Below are positions 59 to 8,228 of a stretch of 8,228 nt of DNA, piece by piece. The DNA lies in IMG/VR virus record IMGVR_UViG_2737471869_000029, positions 1 to 8,228 of that record; one strand, given 5' to 3'. The first letter of the stretch is position 1; each line of letters opens with the position of its first letter. Source of the DNA: a virus (Duplodnaviria; Heunggongvirae; Uroviricota; Caudoviricetes). The position numbers were made by a program, and so were the translations under genes. Below the pieces are notes generated by a model. That model was not told the origin of the DNA, made no database searches, and saw only the letters and a program-made list of their open reading frames with translations.

Positions 59-1939
59 TCATGAAGAAATCGCTCTGACCATTCCGCGATAATCCAGAGC
101 AGCAACGCCAGCATCAATGCGGACCTTCCAGGCCACACCGTCAACAATAAAGCCCTCCTGCTGCTCAAGGTAAGGCTCGTCATTACCGTCAAGATAAGCC
201 ACCTCAATTGTGTCCGTTCCCTGTGCTGAAAGCATGTACCATTGCTTATCACTGACTTCATCAAGGCGGGGATCGACAATAATATCCAGTTGTTTGTGGT
301 ACGGGTTATATGAACCACTGTTTGTATCGGCACCAAAAGGCGTGGTTGAGTTAACCATTTGCAACGCTCTGTCTTCCAGAGCCGCTGGAACAAGAAGGAA
401 TTTTGGCACAATATTCAGCACCTCACCGTTTTCATCCCTCTGTGTGCGCATTGCACGGCGTGCAATGCCAAGCCCTGTAGTGCTGACTCCGTTATCAATA
501 TCATTTCCGTGTTTTTTGCTGAACAGCGGTATACCGTCAGAAAGCTTTGTGTTTCCTGTCAGCACCAGATGAACCAGATTACCCACCGTTCTGGCGGCTG
601 CTCGCCCCATTGCCTGCGGGATAACGGTTAACTGATTCAGATCATCGTTAATAATCGCCTGTCGGGTAATGCTGAAAATATTACCGTAGGTGGCCAGCGC
701 GATTGGTTCACCACGGTCACTGGTGGTTATGTATTTATATTCCGCACCTTCCGGCACTTTGTTTAATGTCGAGAAGCCATTCAGACCAACACGACGCGCT
801 TCATGGAAGTTTGACAATGAACCTTTTTTCGTCCACTGGCGAAATGTCTCGCCGCTTTGCTCCCATCCGGCAAGCACTGATTTTTCAGCGCCACCAGCAA
901 GGATATAAGTAAAATCGCTGCTGCTGTGGTTGAATGCCGCGTTTACTATCTGCGAGCGTGTGCTGTAGCTGCCTGTGCTTATGCCGCGATGGGTTAATGA
1001 TGCCTGTGCCATATCGAAAAGGCTCATCATGGCGTAAGGGTTTCCGCGTTCTGCCTGCTCGTGCCCAAGACGCGCATTAAGCCCCTGACGCATTGCATCA
1101 CCCGTTATGTTGCCGTTATCCGTATATGCGTAGTAAAGATTTGCAGGTGTGGTTTTGTTTGTCGGTGTCGATTCTTTACCCATAGTGAGTAAAAGACGTT
1201 CGCGCGCATCCTCAACGCTACACCCTGAATCAGCAAGACAACTTATAGCCAGGTCGTTATATCTTCCGTTGAACGTACCGAACAACTCACGGATCCCGTT
1301 GAGTCGTTCCTGTTCTCCGCTGGTCGTTTTCTGGCTGATCATGTTCTTAATATTTTCCGGCATATTTGAAAAATCTCCGATTCGTTTTGATTCAATTCGG
1401 GCCATTGCTGTAATCGCGGGTATAACCTCGTCTGCGAAGCCGTTAGCCTTACACTCATTGCCATCCATCCAGGTTTCCGCCTCCATCATGGCGGTGATTT
1501 CCTGTTTGCTCCTGCCCGTTCTTCCGGCGTAGGTTTCAGCCATCGTGTCGCCCAGCTTGTCCATCAGGTCAGCAAAGCGGCGAACGTCGCCCGACACTCC
1601 GGCAGTAACACCACGGGGGGCATGTATCATCATCATTGCGTTTTCAGGCATAACGATGTGATCGCCACACATGGCAATAAACGAGGCCATAGAAGCCGCC
1701 ATGCCTTCAATGTGTACAATTTTCTTTGCCGGATGATTTTTCAGGGCGTTATAGATAGCCAGCCCTTCAAAGATGTCGCCACCAGGTGAATGGATGCGAA
1801 GATGGATTTCAGACGCATTACCACACGCGTTGATCTCGTCAGTAAGTGCCGATGCTTTTACACCGTACCCGCCGATCTCGTCATAAATGCGCACATAGAC
1901 AACATCTGCCATAGCCTTAATGGAAAACCATGTTTTCAT
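59..1939 (-). CDS. Prohead serine protease (ClpP-like) fused to HK97-fold major capsid protein, 626 aa
   Basis: N-terminal ~190 aa carries ClpP/S14-like motifs (HSPGGD, GMAASMAS with the nucleophile Ser, MMMIHAP with the His). The C-terminal ~400 aa has a phage major-capsid-like tail (FLLVPAALEDRAL ... GFIVDGVAWKVRIDAGVAALDYRGMVR). AGGAG sits 7 nt upstream of the ATG at 1939, and the start overlaps the upstream ORF stop (ATGA). A hairpin with T-tract follows the stop. Confidence 0.7.
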   Translation of the reverse strand: MKTWFSIKAMADVVYVRIYDEIGGYGVKASALTDEINACGNASEIHLRIHSPGGDIFEGLAIYNALKNHPAKKIVHIEGMAASMASFIAMCGDHIVMPENAMMMIHAPRGVTAGVSGDVRRFADLMDKLGDTMAETYAGRTGRSKQEITAMMEAETWMDGNECKANGFADEVIPAITAMARIESKRIGDFSNMPENIKNMISQKTTSGEQERLNGIRELFGTFNGRYNDLAISCLADSGCSVEDARERLLLTMGKESTPTNKTTPANLYYAYTDNGNITGDAMRQGLNARLGHEQAERGNPYAMMSLFDMAQASLTHRGISTGSYSTRSQIVNAAFNHSSSDFTYILAGGAEKSVLAGWEQSGETFRQWTKKGSLSNFHEARRVGLNGFSTLNKVPEGAEYKYITTSDRGEPIALATYGNIFSITRQAIINDDLNQLTVIPQAMGRAAARTVGNLVHLVLTGNTKLSDGIPLFSKKHGNDIDNGVSTTGLGIARRAMRTQRDENGEVLNIVPKFLLVPAALEDRALQMVNSTTPFGADTNSGSYNPYHKQLDIIVDPRLDEVSDKQWYMLSAQGTDTIEVAYLDGNDEPYLEQQEGFIVDGVAWKVRIDAGVAALDYRGMVRAISS

Positions 1940-2529: not shown

Positions 2530-2581
2530 GGACAGGCCCACCAAGCCAGGAGTACCTACAAAAAAGCCGGATTGCTCCGGC
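2530..2581. repeat. Copy B of the conserved terminator-associated element
   Basis: GGACAGGCCCACC (2530-2542), CCAGGAG (2546-2552), AAAAAAG (2560-2566), then hairpin GCCGGA-TTGC-TCCGGC (2566-2581). Preceded by an unusual CCGCGCCCGCCCGCCCC tract. Confidence 0.55.
2560..2581 (-). terminator. Rho-independent terminator after the 90-aa ORF
   Basis: Minus-strand read: GCCGGA-GCAA-TCCGGC hairpin followed by TTTTTT, 20 nt downstream of the ORF stop at 2601. Confidence 0.6.
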
Positions 2582-2600
2582 TGTGTGCTCACTTCTTCGG

Positions 2601-2873
2601 TTATTCTCCAGCGCTTTTAACGTTGATGGTTGTTACCTCTTCCGCTTCGGCAATCTCCCGCTCTGTCAGCGTGGCAAAGTTTGCCGCCGTCGTGGTCATG
2701 AATGCGCTTATCAGTTCGGGATGTGCTTTCGCATATCCTTCCCCCGCATGGCGGTCTATCGTTCTGATTGCCACCTTTAAAGCGTGCTCTGTCATGTCTA
2801 ACGCGCGATATTTCGGTTCTGTTCTGTCTCTGCGTTTTTTGAGTGATTTATTAAATTTCCCTGAAGTGTGCAT
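2601..2873 (-). CDS. Hypothetical protein, 90 aa, immediately downstream of the origin
   Basis: ATG at 2871-2873 with GAGGGGG about 11 nt upstream; own terminator downstream. Ala-rich helical-looking sequence with no motif I can name. Confidence 0.5.
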   Translation of the reverse strand: MHTSGKFNKSLKKRRDRTEPKYRALDMTEHALKVAIRTIDRHAGEGYAKAHPELISAFMTTTAANFATLTEREIAEAEEVTTINVKSAGE

Positions 2874-2919
2874 ATTTATTTTTACCCCCTCGTTTAAAAA
2901 GTTTTGAGTTGTGCCTCCC

Positions 2920-3150
2920 CTTGTCTACCTTATCTACCTTAGTGGCCATCATGCCAGTAATGGCGCGGCTTTCAGCGGGGTAGAGTGCTTTTATCCACTA
3001 TCTACCCCGTGTCTACCTCCCTGTCTGATTCAGGTAAAATCAGGTAGAGAGGGTAGATAGTGGGTAGACAGTAAAAAAAGGCTATCTACATAACTTAATG
3101 CACTGAATTAAATGTATTTTTCTTTACTCAGGTAGACAGGGTAGACAGCA
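2920..3150. repeat. Iteron-type replication origin: at least 10 copies of GGTAGA(C/G/T)(A) in both orientations around an AT-rich core
   Basis: TCTACC orientation at 2924-2929, 2933-2938, 3001-3006, 3012-3017. GGTAGA orientation at 3043-3048, 3052-3057, 3063-3068, and tandem GGTAGACAG at 3131-3139 and 3140-3148. AT-rich segment at 3072-3128. Sits directly 3' of the primase-helicase stop (3162). Confidence 0.65.
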
Positions 3151-3161
3151 ATTACAAAAAA

Positions 3162-4910
3162 TTATAAAAACGCGTCGCACTCGTCTGTTGTTATTGCGTT
3201 AGTCTGCGTTACTCCCTTAACTTTCCGCGTAATATATTCATGTCCGTAAACTTTCGCGGCTGGCTTCATAGCCTTGCCAAAGTCATTTACGTTTAGCGGT
3301 TTGCTCCTGCCTGCGTACGCCATAAACGCCAGATAGACGCGGTAAAGGCTGTTCCTGGTCGTGTACTTCACTGAATCACCACCGCCACCCATCATCAGGC
3401 CGCGCGCTTCCTCCAGAAAATTCAGGAACTGGCAAAACTCAATAACCGGATCCGTCTGTTGCTTTATTGCCAGTGCTTCATCACCGTCACGCTGTTCCAG
3501 TAGTAAAGCCCGTGCCTTCTCAGGGTCGGTAAAGTTCGCCAGCAATCGGCGGATAATGACAGGGATTTCAGCCGCGATCTTTTCCGGTAGCTCCCTGTCT
3601 TTTTCGGCCTCACTGACGATATTGTCGAAACGGAAAATTACGCGACGACGTGACACACCTCCGGCCCGTTCGGTGAATATCATCGGGTTATTGTTGGTAG
3701 CCAGCACCACCGCCCTGATTACCGCCGTAAAACGCTTCTCATATTTCGGGTTTATTTCCACGGGGTCGCCGCCCGTGATTTTCTTGATGCCCGTTCCTTC
3801 GCCTGTATATTTCGGCTGGTCAGCCAGGACGATAAGACGACTCCCGACAACCTGCGCACGTCCACCAGCATCATCAAGCGATGTCATCTCCGCGCTCACC
3901 GTGTTCTGTTTCCCTGCCAGAAGGCTGGCTATGTGCGTGAATGTACTTTTACCGCTCCCGCCGTCTCCGGTGGCCTCAATAAACATCTGCCAGTCGTACC
4001 GGTTCGCCATAATCATGTACAGCGCGGCACATATACGCATCATCTTGCGCGGGTCTTTTCCGGCTGCGTGCTCAAGCCATTTATGAAAGTTTGGCGCGTT
4101 ATCGCGGATGTTCTCCCCAGGTGCTGGTGGCGTGTACTCAATGCCGTTGTGCGTGGTGATCCAGTTCTCCGGCGTGTGCGGGGAAAATTCCCCCGTTTTC
4201 AGGTCAAGCGCACCATTGGCGAACGGCAACAAATCGCCGGACGGCTCGCCCATTGGTTCGGCAATAACTTTTAACGCTTCCACGGCGTTATTGATTACGC
4301 GCTTGCTGAAAGTGGCCCTGTGCTCTGAATAGATCGCCACCATTTCGCGGCTAAGTTCCATTGTGCTGACCGGACACCATACCCCGCCGCGCCATACGTG
4401 AACGATTTCACTTTCCGGATGCACACAAACGCCATCAAATCGACCAGCAAGCATCTGTGCGCGCTCACTGTCTGCCATTTGTGCCAATTGCGTATTTTTC
4501 TGCTCCGGCATGGTAAGCCCTGCGGCAATATTTTCACGCTCAGCATTCAGATAGCGCCGCCAGTTTTCACACTTCTGGACGTGCATTCCTTCGGGGTAAA
4601 AATTTGCGTCCTGAATATCTGCCGCCGCCAGCTTCTGACCAATCTTCTTGGTCTCCACTAAATCCAGTTCTCCGGCCTGGTACAGCCTTACGCGCTTTTT
4701 CCCATCCGGAACAATTTTCAGCGCATCAAGTTCGGCAAGCTGATTTGGCCCAAGCCACACAGGCGGCACATTATCGCCGGATGCGGGGCCATCCTGCTCC
4801 TGCCATTGTTCCGCGTGTGACCAGGCATCACTACCCGCAAAGATAATTACCTCTGTGTCTTTGTGTTTTATTCCGCGTGGCTGTTTTTTTACGTTCGGTG
4901 CCAGTTTCAT
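3162..4910 (-). CDS. Replication primase / SF3 helicase (P4 alpha-like, D5 family; PICI pri-rep type), 582 aa
   Basis: Walker A GDGGSGKST and a downstream hydrophobic-acidic stretch (LIVLAD) typical of D5-like helicases; large N-terminal domain. Start ATG overlaps the upstream ORF stop (ATGA). Iterons lie immediately downstream. Confidence 0.88.
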   Translation of the reverse strand: MKLAPNVKKQPRGIKHKDTEVIIFAGSDAWSHAEQWQEQDGPASGDNVPPVWLGPNQLAELDALKIVPDGKKRVRLYQAGELDLVETKKIGQKLAAADIQDANFYPEGMHVQKCENWRRYLNAERENIAAGLTMPEQKNTQLAQMADSERAQMLAGRFDGVCVHPESEIVHVWRGGVWCPVSTMELSREMVAIYSEHRATFSKRVINNAVEALKVIAEPMGEPSGDLLPFANGALDLKTGEFSPHTPENWITTHNGIEYTPPAPGENIRDNAPNFHKWLEHAAGKDPRKMMRICAALYMIMANRYDWQMFIEATGDGGSGKSTFTHIASLLAGKQNTVSAEMTSLDDAGGRAQVVGSRLIVLADQPKYTGEGTGIKKITGGDPVEINPKYEKRFTAVIRAVVLATNNNPMIFTERAGGVSRRRVIFRFDNIVSEAEKDRELPEKIAAEIPVIIRRLLANFTDPEKARALLLEQRDGDEALAIKQQTDPVIEFCQFLNFLEEARGLMMGGGGDSVKYTTRNSLYRVYLAFMAYAGRSKPLNVNDFGKAMKPAAKVYGHEYITRKVKGVTQTNAITTDECDAFL

Positions 4911-5206
4911 TTTTTACCCCTGAATACGTTAAGCATCTTTTTTATTTCCTGAATATTGGCGCGTGCTTTCTCCCTGCTGGTGGGCACGTTATGCGGCGCG
5001 GTCTGTACAAGAGAAAAATCACGCCGGAACTGATAAACAGGCATCACGCAATCATATTCGTAACCCTCACGGCGGTAAGTTACGCACCGTCCCGCCACGC
5101 CCTTAATCATTACCGTGCCGCCGTACTGGTCGCGGTAAATATCACCGCGCGTAAATTTAGGGTGAGTGTTGCCACTGGCAGTTAAGCCAGAATATTTAAG
5201 TTTCAT
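4907..5206 (-). CDS. Hypothetical protein, 99 aa, coupled to the primase-helicase
   Basis: ATG at 5204-5206 with GGAG about 11 nt upstream; stop overlaps the primase start. No recognisable motif. Confidence 0.55.
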   Translation of the reverse strand: MKLKYSGLTASGNTHPKFTRGDIYRDQYGGTVMIKGVAGRCVTYRREGYEYDCVMPVYQFRRDFSLVQTAPHNVPTSREKARANIQEIKKMLNVFRGKK

Positions 5207-5211
5207 TATTT

Positions 5212-5442
5212 TTATTCTCCGGTGTGGGGCACGTTATTATTTTCGTGAATTGCCATTGCCTTATCCAGTTCATCAATAACAGGCGATAGTAATGTCTGAA
5301 TGGCTGCAAACATTAATACACCTGATTCCTCACCACCTTCCGGCACTTCAATTAATTTAATTAACAACGCATTCATTTCGCGCGCTTTAATTAATGCGTT
5401 TTCAGAGTGGATTAATACTTCAAAAGGGATTTTATGCATCAC
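5212..5442 (-). CDS. Hypothetical small protein, 75-76 aa (GTG at 5442 or ATG at 5439)
   Basis: GGGAG lies 7 nt upstream of the GTG; the start overlaps the stop of the upstream 66-aa ORF (GTGATG / TGA). Helical, acidic sequence. Confidence 0.5.
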   Translation of the reverse strand: MMHKIPFEVLIHSENALIKAREMNALLIKLIEVPEGGEESGVLMFAAIQTLLSPVIDELDKAMAIHENNNVPHTGE

Positions 5443-5639
5443 AAAATTTCTCCCTGGCGAATACGGGCGGCGAATACCATCACGCAGCCATCAGGAGATT
5501 GCTGGCGTGCTTCCTGTTCGCTGGTGGCCTCAATGGTAATCACGCGCGGTTGTGCAGTGCTCAGGGCGATAAAACGCCAGATGTATTTATTCAGGTTGTG
5601 CGAGTCCCGCCCTTGCGGGTGTGTAGTATGATTTCTCAT
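5439..5639 (-). CDS. Hypothetical small protein, 66 aa, first gene of the leftward replication operon
   Basis: ATG at 5637-5639 with GAGGT 5 nt upstream. It is the C-terminal part of the 303-aa track ORF, which I reject as a whole. Confidence 0.45.
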   Translation of the reverse strand: MRNHTTHPQGRDSHNLNKYIWRFIALSTAQPRVITIEATSEQEARQQSPDGCVMVFAARIRQGEIL

Positions 5640-5735
5640 AGCTACCTCGATACTGTTGCTATCGTTGGTGGTTAGAAGCCCGGTTAGTGTTAGCGCACTG
5701 CCGGGTTTCGTCGTTTCTGCACCTTGCATCAACAA

Positions 5736-5810
5736 GGTGTTGAACACCAATTTAAACCTAGGTGTTAAACACGTCAAGTGTTGAACACTTGTTTTTTTTC
5801 CTGCATACTG
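5736..5810. promoter_or_regulatory. Genetic switch: three palindromic operators GTGTTnAACAC over back-to-back divergent promoters
   Basis: Operators at 5737-5747, 5762-5772 and 5778-5788. Leftward promoter candidate (minus strand) TTGACG 5772-5777, N17, TAAATT 5749-5754. Rightward candidate TTGAAC 5781-5786, N17, CATACT 5804-5809. Confidence 0.6.
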
Positions 5811-5838
5811 CATTTGTTTTTTGTGAGGGGGACACAAC

Positions 5839-6018
5839 ATGGCGACAAAAGCAGTAAACGCAAAATCACAAACAGTTGCGGCAAGGGTTCCGCATGAAGT
5901 TATGAACAATGTTGAGGCGGTAAAAATGCCTGGTGAAAGTACAGGGCAGTTTGTAACAGCAGCATTAAAGCGAGAAGTTGAGTACCGCCAGCGCCGCAAG
6001 GCCAAAGAATCAGAATAA
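5839..6018 (+). CDS. Small ribbon-helix-helix-like DNA-binding protein, 59 aa (not in the ORF track)
   Basis: ATG at 5839 with GAGGGGG 6 nt upstream. Sequence MATKAVNAKSQTVAARVPHEVMNNVEAVKMPGESTGQFVTAALKREVEYRQRRKAKESE fits an RHH (Arc/CopG-like) beta-helix-GxS/T-helix pattern. Transcribed divergently from the replication operon. Confidence 0.55.
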   Translation: MATKAVNAKSQTVAARVPHEVMNNVEAVKMPGESTGQFVTAALKREVEYRQRRKAKESE

Positions 6019-6075
6019 TAACTATCATCGCCGTGGTGTGAGGAACTCCGGCGCATTGCTTTACAGGTACACAGA

Positions 6076-6249
6076 ATGACCAACAAAGAATCAACCAATA
6101 CACCATCACCGGCACGGAAAAGACGGCGCAGAAAGATAGAGCATGAATCAGAAAGATTCGCGCCATGTGCTTTTGCCCTTGAGCAATTCCTTAAAGAGTA
6201 CAGGGAAACGCGCTCATTGCAGGTATGGCAACGAACTGAACCAGACTGA
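6076..6249 (+). CDS. Hypothetical small basic protein, 57 aa (not in the ORF track)
   Basis: ATG at 6076 with a weak AGGT SD 7 nt upstream; same frame as the RHH ORF. Arg/Lys-rich N-terminus (ARKRRRRK). A plus-strand terminator follows. Confidence 0.3.
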   Translation: MTNKESTNTPSPARKRRRRKIEHESERFAPCAFALEQFLKEYRETRSLQVWQRTEPD

Positions 6250-6313
6250 TTGCATTGCCCACCAGCCTGATAGCGGCTATCATCCCCGTGCTTATGTTTA
6301 GTGCTTTCCCATT

Positions 6314-6344
6314 GGCGACCGCCCCCGGTCGCCTTTGTTTTATG
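6314..6344 (+). terminator. Plus-strand intrinsic terminator ending the rightward small operon
   Basis: Perfect 8-bp stem GGCGACCG / CGGTCGCC (6314-6321, 6326-6333) with a 4-nt loop, then TTTGTTTTATG. No T-tract on the minus strand. Confidence 0.6.
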
Positions 6345-6360
6345 TGTCATATGCTCCCCT

Positions 6361-6570
6361 TTACACTGCCTTACCTGAATTAATGCGATCCCGGCTTTTA
6401 ACCCATTCCATAACCTCGGACAGCAGCCACCCTACAGAACGACCGCCCAGATTAAGACGTGACGGAAAGCGCCCTTTTTTCTCCAGTTCGTAACGTGTAG
6501 TGCGGCACACTCCAGTTAACTTACGACATTCATCCTCACGGATTACGCGATCTTCATTTATTTCACGCAT
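6361..6570 (-). CDS. alpA: AlpA-family (excisionase-like) transcriptional regulator, 69 aa from the ATG at 6570 (track gives 98 aa from a GTG at 6657)
   Basis: Conserved AlpA core CRKLTGVCRTTRYELEKKGRFPSRLNLGGRSVGWLLSEVMEWV. The 87 bp between 6571 and 6657 is very AT-rich, promoter-like, and has no SD before the GTG, so I prefer the ATG start. Confidence 0.82.
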   Translation of the reverse strand: MREINEDRVIREDECRKLTGVCRTTRYELEKKGRFPSRLNLGGRSVGWLLSEVMEWVKSRDRINSGKAV

Positions 6571-6693
6571 ACAAAAACCTACATAAAAATTACGTATATA
6601 AACTTTTCTCTTAGCTGTAGATATATGAGATCGGATATTACTTAGATTCTTTTTCACCTCTTAAATTAAAAACACAACCATGCTAAAGGCTTT

Positions 6694-6989: not shown

Positions 6990-8228
6990 TCAAGAATTTT
7001 GGGGGTAAATTCGCGGGGTCATAACAACGATTTTTTCATCATTGTTCTGGAGAAGCTCGAGACGGTCTACCCATAGATTAAGAGCATCACGTTTTGCATC
7101 AAGGTAGCGGGAGTGGTTATAGACTCGTTGCATCCCTGGCATCTGGTGGGCTGTAAGCTGCTCGACAATATGCGGATCCACGCCTAAATCGTTCAGCATG
7201 GTTGTAAATGTGTGCCGGATATCGTGTAACGTCCAAGGGGCTTGATTAATTCGTCTGTGCGCTGTTCTTCCGTACTCTGCTACCGAAGATTGTCCTTTCA
7301 GTTCACCAAGCAATAAGCCCGTGTGTCTGTTCTGCTCCACCAGTTGCGTGACGAACGGCAAAATGCTTTCCGGTATTGGCCTGAATATGGCGACCTTCGT
7401 TTTGCTGTGCTCCTTCGGTACTGTCCAGAGCATTTCTTTAAAATCCCACTCCTGCACCTCAGAGCGCCTTAGCTCAGTGGTACGGCATCCAAAAACAATC
7501 AGGAGGCGAATTAGGGCGCTGTAGTATGGCGGGAATATTTTGTCATCCAGGGCGCGGAGTAATTCCCCAAGCTCCTTGTTTGTTAGTACGCGCTCGCTCA
7601 CTTCTGCTTTTTTTCCCACATCACCGACAACCATATCATCAAGAACGTTGCTGATTGCGTATCGTCGTTTTCGGCAGTACTTAAGCGCCTGTTTGCATAC
7701 CTGTAGCAAAAATCCGGCAGATACTGGGCTTCGCTTTGCCATCTGGTCAAAACATGCCAACCAGTGCCGTAGCTCGCATTTTTCCAACGGCAAAGCGCCA
7801 ATCTGGCTGATTATGTGTTTATTGATCCGGCTTTTCAGTGATTCGTAGTCAGTGCGCTTTTCCTTTGCATACGATTCAAGCCAGTAAGTGAGCGCTTCCT
7901 TAACTGTCACGGGGGCTAACGCATCCTGTACAGCACGATTAAGCTCATAGCGCGGATTTTTCCCCTCAGCCAGCCAGGCGCGACACTGTGCTGCTTTTTC
8001 CCTGGCTGCTTTCAGGCTCAGATCGGGATAATTGCCCAGTCTCAGACGTTCCGGTGATACCTGCCTACCAGTTCCGGCCCTGTAAGTGAAATACCAGGTT
8101 AACAGGCCGCTGGTGGAATGTCTTACGCTAAGATTGCCACCGTCATTAAAAAAGGCGTTTTTTGTGGTTGGTGATCCGCTTAATTTTCGTAAAAGAGTGT
8201 CGCTAAGTCTATGAATTGCGCTGCTCAT
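6990..8228 (-). CDS. int: Tyrosine recombinase / integrase, P4-type, 412 aa
   Basis: P4-int-like N-terminal arm-binding region (FNDGGNLSVRHSTSGLLTWYFTYR), catalytic motifs LHDIRHTFTT (His-x-x-Arg) and VYNHSRY (Tyr nucleophile), conserved Arg in GCRTTELRR. ATG is at 8226-8228, the window edge. Confidence 0.93.
   Translation of the reverse strand: MSSAIHRLSDTLLRKLSGSPTTKNAFFNDGGNLSVRHSTSGLLTWYFTYRAGTGRQVSPERLRLGNYPDLSLKAAREKAAQCRAWLAEGKNPRYELNRAVQDALAPVTVKEALTYWLESYAKEKRTDYESLKSRINKHIISQIGALPLEKCELRHWLACFDQMAKRSPVSAGFLLQVCKQALKYCRKRRYAISNVLDDMVVGDVGKKAEVSERVLTNKELGELLRALDDKIFPPYYSALIRLLIVFGCRTTELRRSEVQEWDFKEMLWTVPKEHSKTKVAIFRPIPESILPFVTQLVEQNRHTGLLLGELKGQSSVAEYGRTAHRRINQAPWTLHDIRHTFTTMLNDLGVDPHIVEQLTAHQMPGMQRVYNHSRYLDAKRDALNLWVDRLELLQNNDEKIVVMTPRIYPQNS

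Follow-up and report, generated by a model that had tools for sequence, protein, structure and literature searches.

Gene order and distribution of the island

The window, i.e., the whole stretch of 8,228 bp that was analysed, contains ten long ORFs, all situated on the minus strand. An integrase gene, alpA, and unidirectional transcription together with a replication module were thus found, as in PICIs. In gene direction, the features are:

6990-8228, minus strand: integrase
6361-6657, minus strand: AlpA
5439-6350, minus strand: Icd-like ORF of 303 aa, with the family match in its last ~50 residues only
between the Icd-like ORF and the DUF4222 gene, minus strand: ORF of 76 aa
4907-5206, minus strand: DUF4222
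3162-4910, minus strand: predicted initiator-helicase "pri-rep" (hereafter rep) of 582 aa, annotated as "DNA primase" family
2917-3152, minus strand: putative replication origin (iteron array) with an imperfect dyad centred at 3034/3035, based on repeat counts, homology, and core conservation
2601-2873, minus strand: ORF of 90 aa, with its ATG at 2873
between the 90-aa ORF and the capsid fusion, minus strand: two small ORFs
59-1939, minus strand: fusion of a ClpP-like prohead protease and a major capsid protein

The part from 2600 to 3400 matches 1,513 of the 5,426 complete E. coli genomes, 447 of which cover at least 80% of it. The closest full-length relative (locus L018; E. coli OkiPb01678, positions 7000-17400) is 96% identical and constitutes an island of around 10 kb between clpS and cspD. 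Concerning the integration sites of other islands, EcCICFT073 lies between roxA (ycfD) and phoQ, and the island of strain Nissle lies beside a tRNA-Pro gene and possesses an unrelated integrase. A reading as a capsid-forming PICI, suggested by the protease-capsid fusion, was dropped, as the closest complete relative comprises only around 10 kb and has neither a portal nor a large terminase gene.

At the position of the Icd-like ORF, a short Icd-like gene, a pseudogene, and an opposite-strand YlcI/YnfO gene are annotated in relatives. Just upstream of the Icd-like part, a symR-like Rfam match (5640-5712, plus strand) reaches 32.9 bits, under the gathering score of 61. In the Rfam scan of the whole window (E up to 1), this weak match was accompanied by sub-threshold miRNA-like matches on the palindrome of the array (see below), and an RNA element was rejected. 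Some 90 bp at 2472-2564 are 85% identical to unannotated DNA of Stx-converting phages (VT1-Sakai and Stx2a phages), and a terminator-like hairpin is situated at 2565-2582 (minus strand).

The iteron array and its symmetry

The gap of 288 bp following the stop of rep (2874-3161) is filled by an array of short repeats (2921-3148), which is located immediately 3' of the initiator gene, with 13 bp separating the rep stop from the nearest iteron. The hexamer GGTAGA, or TCTACC on the other strand, occurs 12 times exactly in the window (1.90 ± 1.38 expected from 200 shuffles, maximum 7), and ten of these copies fall within 2924-3145. They start at 2924 (-), 2933 (-), 2979 (+), 3001 (-), and 3012 (-) in the left part, and at 3043, 3052, 3063, 3131, and 3140 (all +) in the right part. 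A density of at least ten hexamers per 230 bp has a probability of about 5e-20 (Poisson estimate), and the original prediction of at least ten iteron copies within around 230 bp 3' of the gene was right in number and position. An eleventh hexamer (3085-3090, minus strand) is degenerate in the window (TCTACA); in relatives, it reads exactly TCTACC. The iteron consensus is R-GGTAGA-(C/T/G)-A-G, and the single sites, together with two further elements of the gap, are as follows:

3140-3148, plus strand: iteron GGTAGACAG, first site past the rep stop and member of a tandem
3131-3139, plus strand: iteron GGTAGACAG, second site of the tandem
3091-3130, no strand: AT-rich spacer of 40 bp (78% AT), presumed DNA-unwinding segment, based on composition, stability, and its slot in the P4 ori
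3082-3090, minus strand: degenerate inverted iteron TGTAGATAG, with an exact GGTAGA in EcCICFT073, Nissle, UM146, and GPEC464
3063-3071, plus strand: iteron GGTAGACAG
3052-3060, plus strand: iteron GGTAGATAG
3043-3051, plus strand: iteron GGTAGAGAG
3021-3029, minus strand: possible decayed twelfth site (CTGTCTGAT on the plus strand), weak; the equivalent in relatives is TGTAGA (GPEC464) or GGTAGC (EH53)
3009-3017, minus strand: iteron GGTAGACAC (minus-strand reading)
2998-3006, minus strand: iteron GGTAGATAG (minus-strand reading)
2979-2987, plus strand: iteron GGTAGAGTG, the only left-arm site in inverted orientation, mirroring 3085-3090
2955-2968, no strand: conserved non-iteron block of 14 nt, CAGTAATGGCGCGG (also given as CCGCGCCATTACTG), within a GC-rich spacer (2939-2978)
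2930-2938, minus strand: iteron GGTAGATAA (minus-strand reading)
2921-2929, minus strand: iteron GGTAGACAA (minus-strand reading), last site, 48 bp short of the ATG of the next gene

The perfect tandem GGTAGACAG-GGTAGACAG that had been predicted is found at 3131-3148. The predicted orientation of the arms, TCTACC on the left and GGTAGA on the right, holds overall, except for one opposite site in each arm (2979, plus strand, and 3085, minus strand). Read from the rep stop in gene direction, with a for TCTACC, b for GGTAGA, and numbers for start-to-start distances, the order of sites is a-9-a-46-b-22-a-11-a-9-a, then b-11-b-22-a-46-b-9-b. Ten of the 11 sites form exact mirror pairs about the dyad at 3034/3035, and the decayed twelfth site at 3021-3029 completes a 6+6 pattern. 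The self-complementarity of 2917-3152 amounts to 53%, compared to 25 ± 4% in shuffled sequences.

An AT-rich core of 57 bp had been predicted between the arms. Such a stretch exists (3072-3130; 59 bp, 76% AT vs 52% in the whole window), but it lies inside the right arm, between the triplet of sites at 3043-3071 and the tandem pair at 3131-3148, whereas the segment actually situated between the arms (3018-3042) comprises 25 bp with 60% AT. The stretch is thus flanked by sites, as in PICI origins, with two of them on one side and nine on the other, and is off-centre with respect to the dyad. Within it, 30-mers of the AT-rich spacer are about 2.4 standard deviations less stable than the window mean, although even less stable DNA is present elsewhere in the window. 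It is present on one side of the dyad only, whereas its mirror counterpart (2939-2978) is GC-rich (42% AT) and conserved. The block at 2955-2968 therein shows no variation among GGTAGA-type origins, the remainder of which is around 77% identical, and is absent from TGTTCACC-type origins. Neither a promoter, nor a significant fold, nor a second copy was found for this block, and single-strand folds of the GC-rich block and the AT-rich spacer were non-significant on both strands (z from -1.15 to +0.68).

Concerning host factors, a search for IHF and DnaA boxes in ten related origins revealed no conserved site. The sequence TTATCCAC at 2991-2998, which overlaps the flank of an iteron, matches eight of nine DnaA-box bases. 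It is limited to close relatives (EcCICFT073, Nissle, UM146) and missing in EH53 and GPEC464, such that the likeness is probably incidental.

The Rep protein and the covariation of iterons with the replicase

The protein encoded at 3162-4910 exhibits the following parts:

aa 1-135: Toprim-like N-terminal domain, without HMM match
aa 151-280: D5_N
aa 314-415: DUF5906 SF3 helicase
aa 485-574: Pox_D5 C-terminal domain
aa 486-577 (3180-3455, minus strand): C-terminal winged-helix domain, presumed iteron reader (phmmer against PDB 1ka8, E 7e-7)

PDB 1ka8 is what we take to be the origin-binding winged helix of P4 alpha (presumably that of Yeo et al. 2002). Rep and P4 alpha share 40% identity over 438 aa, and the helicase core of Rep matches PriRep5 (PDB 7ola, E 6e-15). 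The C-terminus of P4 alpha is closer to Reps of the TGTTCACC type (47% identity, 103 bits) than to the window Rep (32%, 47 bits).

Concerning the N-terminal part, HMM searches for a Zn-ribbon and a Toprim domain gave no match in the window Rep, whereas P4 alpha gives both. The first 135 residues are modelled confidently (pLDDT 86.6). In an hhalign comparison of the Rep N-terminal alignment with P4 alpha, only the D5_N part aligned, with no sequence link to the Toprim domain of alpha, and the usual Toprim acidic residues appear, by eye, to be replaced. With low confidence, the domain is probably a degenerate Toprim, with priming dependent on the host, since the protein lacks recognisable primase motifs. 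Given the missing Zn-ribbon and Toprim matches, the predicted label "primase-helicase" overstates the gene, which is better called a helicase-initiator. The annotation of such Reps as "DNA primase family protein" may therefore mislead about primase activity.

The comparison was based on around 15 fetched loci. A search for related loci with one genome per species yielded three loci, and homologue searches with N- and C-terminal fragments of Rep retrieved, for the most part, incomplete proteins of E. coli and Shigella. P0113, the only C-terminal match with 65% identity, was left out, since its metagenome contig contains many errors and frameshifts. Among four lineages with gap identities down to 77%, 55 of the 66 hexamer-core columns are invariant, compared to 62 of the 170 non-core columns (Fisher p 5e-11), and the sites agree in number, order, and orientation even where the DNA is 77% identical. 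This conservation of the cores rules out neutral decay.

In sister islands that share the DUF4222 gene and the downstream gene but possess another replicase, other repeats occupy the same gap:

605-aa alpha-like Rep (L011, L012): repeat CTGTTCACC, 9-11 copies
DUF927 replicase (L009): repeat TAACCCGCA, 11 copies
RepA-type/AAA_25 helicase (L010): repeat AAAGTGAGG, array split by IS3
Serratia relative, 53% identical: repeat CTGTTCAC
Morganella relative, 52% identical: repeat TGTTCAT

In L010 (E. coli O145 RM8988-C1), the IS3-family element occupies 3914-5127 in the middle of the AAAGTGAGG array, presumably inactivating that origin.

The DUF4222 protein does not track the iteron, since the window and L010 share 89% identity in it despite different iterons, and the downstream protein remains 83-93% identical across iteron types. 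The origin of the Nissle island corresponds to that of the window site for site, with 11 exact GGTAGA, yet its AlpA is only 27% and its integrase 21.5% identical. Within Rep, the N-terminal domain is 39% identical to that of GPEC464, which has the same iteron, and 67% identical to that of L011, which has a different one, whereas the D5_N, helicase, and C-terminal domains are 98, 96, and 81% identical to those of GPEC464 and 35, 54, and 32% to those of L011, as in a natural domain swap. Among Reps of the GGTAGA group, the C-terminal domain shows 81-99% identity, compared to 32% towards the TGTTCACC group, and group-specific substitutions are visible. The iteron type hence tracks Rep residues 151-582, including the homologue of the P4 alpha origin-binding domain, and not AlpA, the integrase, DUF4222, or the downstream gene. 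Specificity presumably resides in the C-terminal domain; this assignment is correlative, and covariation with the iteron extends to D5_N and the helicase. Fixed cores amid diverging flanks, together with the covariation of iteron and replicase, support an initiator-specific origin. Such natural swaps of iteron and initiator at one syntenic slot could be used to map the DNA-recognition residues of P4-alpha-type winged-helix domains.

Function of the array and comparison with EcCICFT073, P4, and SaPIs

The gap 2874-3161 aligns without any indel to the gap between pri and the next gene in EcCICFT073 (288 bp; CFT073 1377749-1389210, locus L007), with 274 of 288 positions identical (95.1%) and all iterons in register. 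The Pri-Rep of EcCICFT073 is 90.6% identical to the window Rep, and 98-99% from residue 151 on. Fillol-Salom et al. (2018, ISME J, PMC6092414) compared pri-ori, pri-delta-ori, and delta-pri-ori plasmids of this island and found maintenance at the restrictive temperature to be impaired by both deletions. When the intergenic region was removed from the pri-ori plasmid, replication-dependent colonies were "significantly reduced"; abolition is not stated (PMC6092414). According to their primers, the delta-ori construct ends 4 bp past the pri stop and the pri-ori construct extends ~20 nt into the next gene (PMC6092414), such that the tested "ori" is the exact homologue of 2874-3161. The published primer for the deletion of pri includes the same tandem iteron with its flanks.

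Both islands carry the origin immediately 3' of pri-rep, and they share the neighbouring genes, i.e., DUF4222 on the upstream side and a small gene on the downstream side. Despite this likeness, there are some differences: The N-terminal domain of Rep is 70% identical only, EcCICFT073 possesses an exact site where 3085-3090 of the window is degenerate, and the fusion of ClpP-like protease and major capsid protein in the window stands against lambda-like capsid and decoration genes, SSB, and PerC in EcCICFT073. The contrast is illustrated by 59-1939 (minus strand) of the window and 8669-10071 of L007, where unlike cargo accompanies a nearly identical replication module. It points to modular exchange between PICI types.

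Taken together, the region 2917-3152 is very probably the vegetative replication origin of an EcCI-family E. coli PICI (int, alpA, Icd-like, DUF4222, pri-rep, ori), a function assigned from the EcCICFT073 homologue. The original prediction of a satellite or PICI origin with its own initiator is thus supported by the 95.1% identity to the EcCICFT073 origin and by the covariation of iteron and replicase. The need of the region for pri-dependent plasmid replication was demonstrated in the 95%-identical EcCICFT073 homologue only; homology, site conservation, and covariation are the results of the present analysis. This type of origin is already known, having been described and tested in EcCICFT073 in 2018, and the finding is correct but ordinary. 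It confirms that a functional origin, together with its class of specificity, can be recognised from raw sequence, but adds little new biology.

A mechanism may be outlined after the analogues P4 alpha and the SaPI Reps (PMC9371898). Following induction, Rep would act as a hexameric SF3 helicase and recognise the R-GGTAGA-YAG iterons, probably by means of its C-terminal winged helix, the sites being spaced by 9-11 bp and thus by about one helical turn. The array would consist of a pair of half-origins in mirror image, each with about six sites in the geometry of the P4 ori, and one helicase ring might assemble per half. The AT-rich spacer (3091-3130) beside the rep-proximal pair would then melt and the helicase load itself, with priming probably left to the host.

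Other functions have to be weighed against that of an origin. Directly 3' of P4 alpha lies crr, not ori, and iterons commonly have control roles in iteron plasmids; the array might accordingly be a crr-like cis element for copy control, handcuffing, or enhancement, with initiation taking place elsewhere. The complete islands (EcCICFT073, Nissle, and the closest relative), however, hold a single GGTAGA cluster and hence no second candidate for an ori, the spacing of the sites fits the P4 ori and not the crr unit, and rep plus the region alone maintained a plasmid in EcCICFT073 (PMC6092414), all of which renders a crr-like role quite improbable. A slightly fainter chance is given to the repeats being operators of AlpA, PerC, or another island regulator, controlling the 90-aa, capsid, and interference genes downstream, without any origin. 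The array is indeed located immediately upstream of the next gene, the last site lying 48 bp before its start codon, which is preceded by an invariant stretch of 22 nt. A scan of 2550-3450, though, revealed neither a sigma70-like promoter on the minus strand nor a terminator following rep, and the downstream gene remains 83-93% identical where the repeats differ entirely. Moreover, AlpA of the Nissle island has diverged (27% identity) while its origin matches site for site, the repeats co-vary with the replicase, and replication requires the homologous region (PMC6092414). The missing promoter, the covariation, and the published replication phenotype disfavour regulation of the downstream genes.

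Arrays of repeats can also serve as TerS-binding sites, and the weak miRNA-like Rfam matches reflect the hairpin potential of a palindrome that might in principle have arisen by chance and be decaying without function. Against a packaging site (pac), the repeats track the replicase and not the capsid or terminase genes, and the same origin is combined with different capsid cargo in the window and in EcCICFT073; a chance palindrome is contradicted by the conservation of the cores. Packaging and chance are therefore practically excluded, and replication initiation remains the preferred function of the array.

In the P4 record, TGTTCACC is annotated as the type 1 repeat and occurs 11 times, whereas GGTAGA is absent. 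The window array, with GGTAGA as its repeat, thus differs from the P4 type I iteron, which the original prediction had given correctly, and the change of the iteron with the replicase bears out the distinct specificity proposed there. The initiators have D5_N, the SF3 helicase, and an origin-binding domain of the winged-helix type in common. The sites are arranged as a-10-a-43-b-22-a-11-a-10-a in the P4 ori and as a-9-a-46-b-22-a-11-a-9-a in each half of the window array, with the AT-rich spacer in the same slot of 43-46 bp. This likeness in geometry, present though the iteron sequence differs, had been missed in the original prediction. The TGTTCACC and TGTTCAT origins (L011, Serratia, Morganella) match the P4 ori geometry, too. 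Besides these similarities, ori and crr are separate in P4, around 4.5 kb apart, whereas the window has one dyad of two halves beside the gene, and a single GGTAGA cluster is found in the complete islands L007, L018, and L001 (EcCICFT073, the closest relative, and Nissle). Furthermore, alpha possesses a Zn-ribbon/Toprim primase region, to neither part of which the window Rep gives an HMM match.

The SaPI ori is situated immediately downstream of rep and consists of 6-12 short iterons around an AT-rich region, and SaPI Reps bind iterons via a C-terminal winged helix, with the helicase loading itself (PMC9371898). The window shares this architecture and a homologous helicase core with SaPIbov1, SaPI1, and SaPI5, by analogy and not by DNA homology, none of which is detectable. 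Iteron sequences and hosts differ, and the AT-rich region of the window is off-centre in its dyad array.

A unifying scheme may tentatively be proposed, although we consider it somewhat doubtful as a whole. P4-alpha-type initiators might share a fixed scaffold (two sites, an AT-rich part of ~44 bp, one inverted site, 22 bp, and three sites, i.e., six sites per hexamer), which enterobacterial PICIs would have mirror-duplicated into a 6+6 platform for two hexamers. Pairs of iteron and winged helix (GGTAGA, TGTTCACC, TGTTCAT) would be swapped without change of geometry, CCGCGCCATTACTG would bind a further factor or signal priming, and the "primase" would function as a helicase-initiator that retains a dead remnant of Toprim and needs host DnaG. 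A literature search for the iteron string returned nothing relevant. The identity in geometry between the PICI half-origin and the P4 ori may be unreported. The shared exact geometry links two satellite families, PICIs and P4, that are treated as distinct in the literature.
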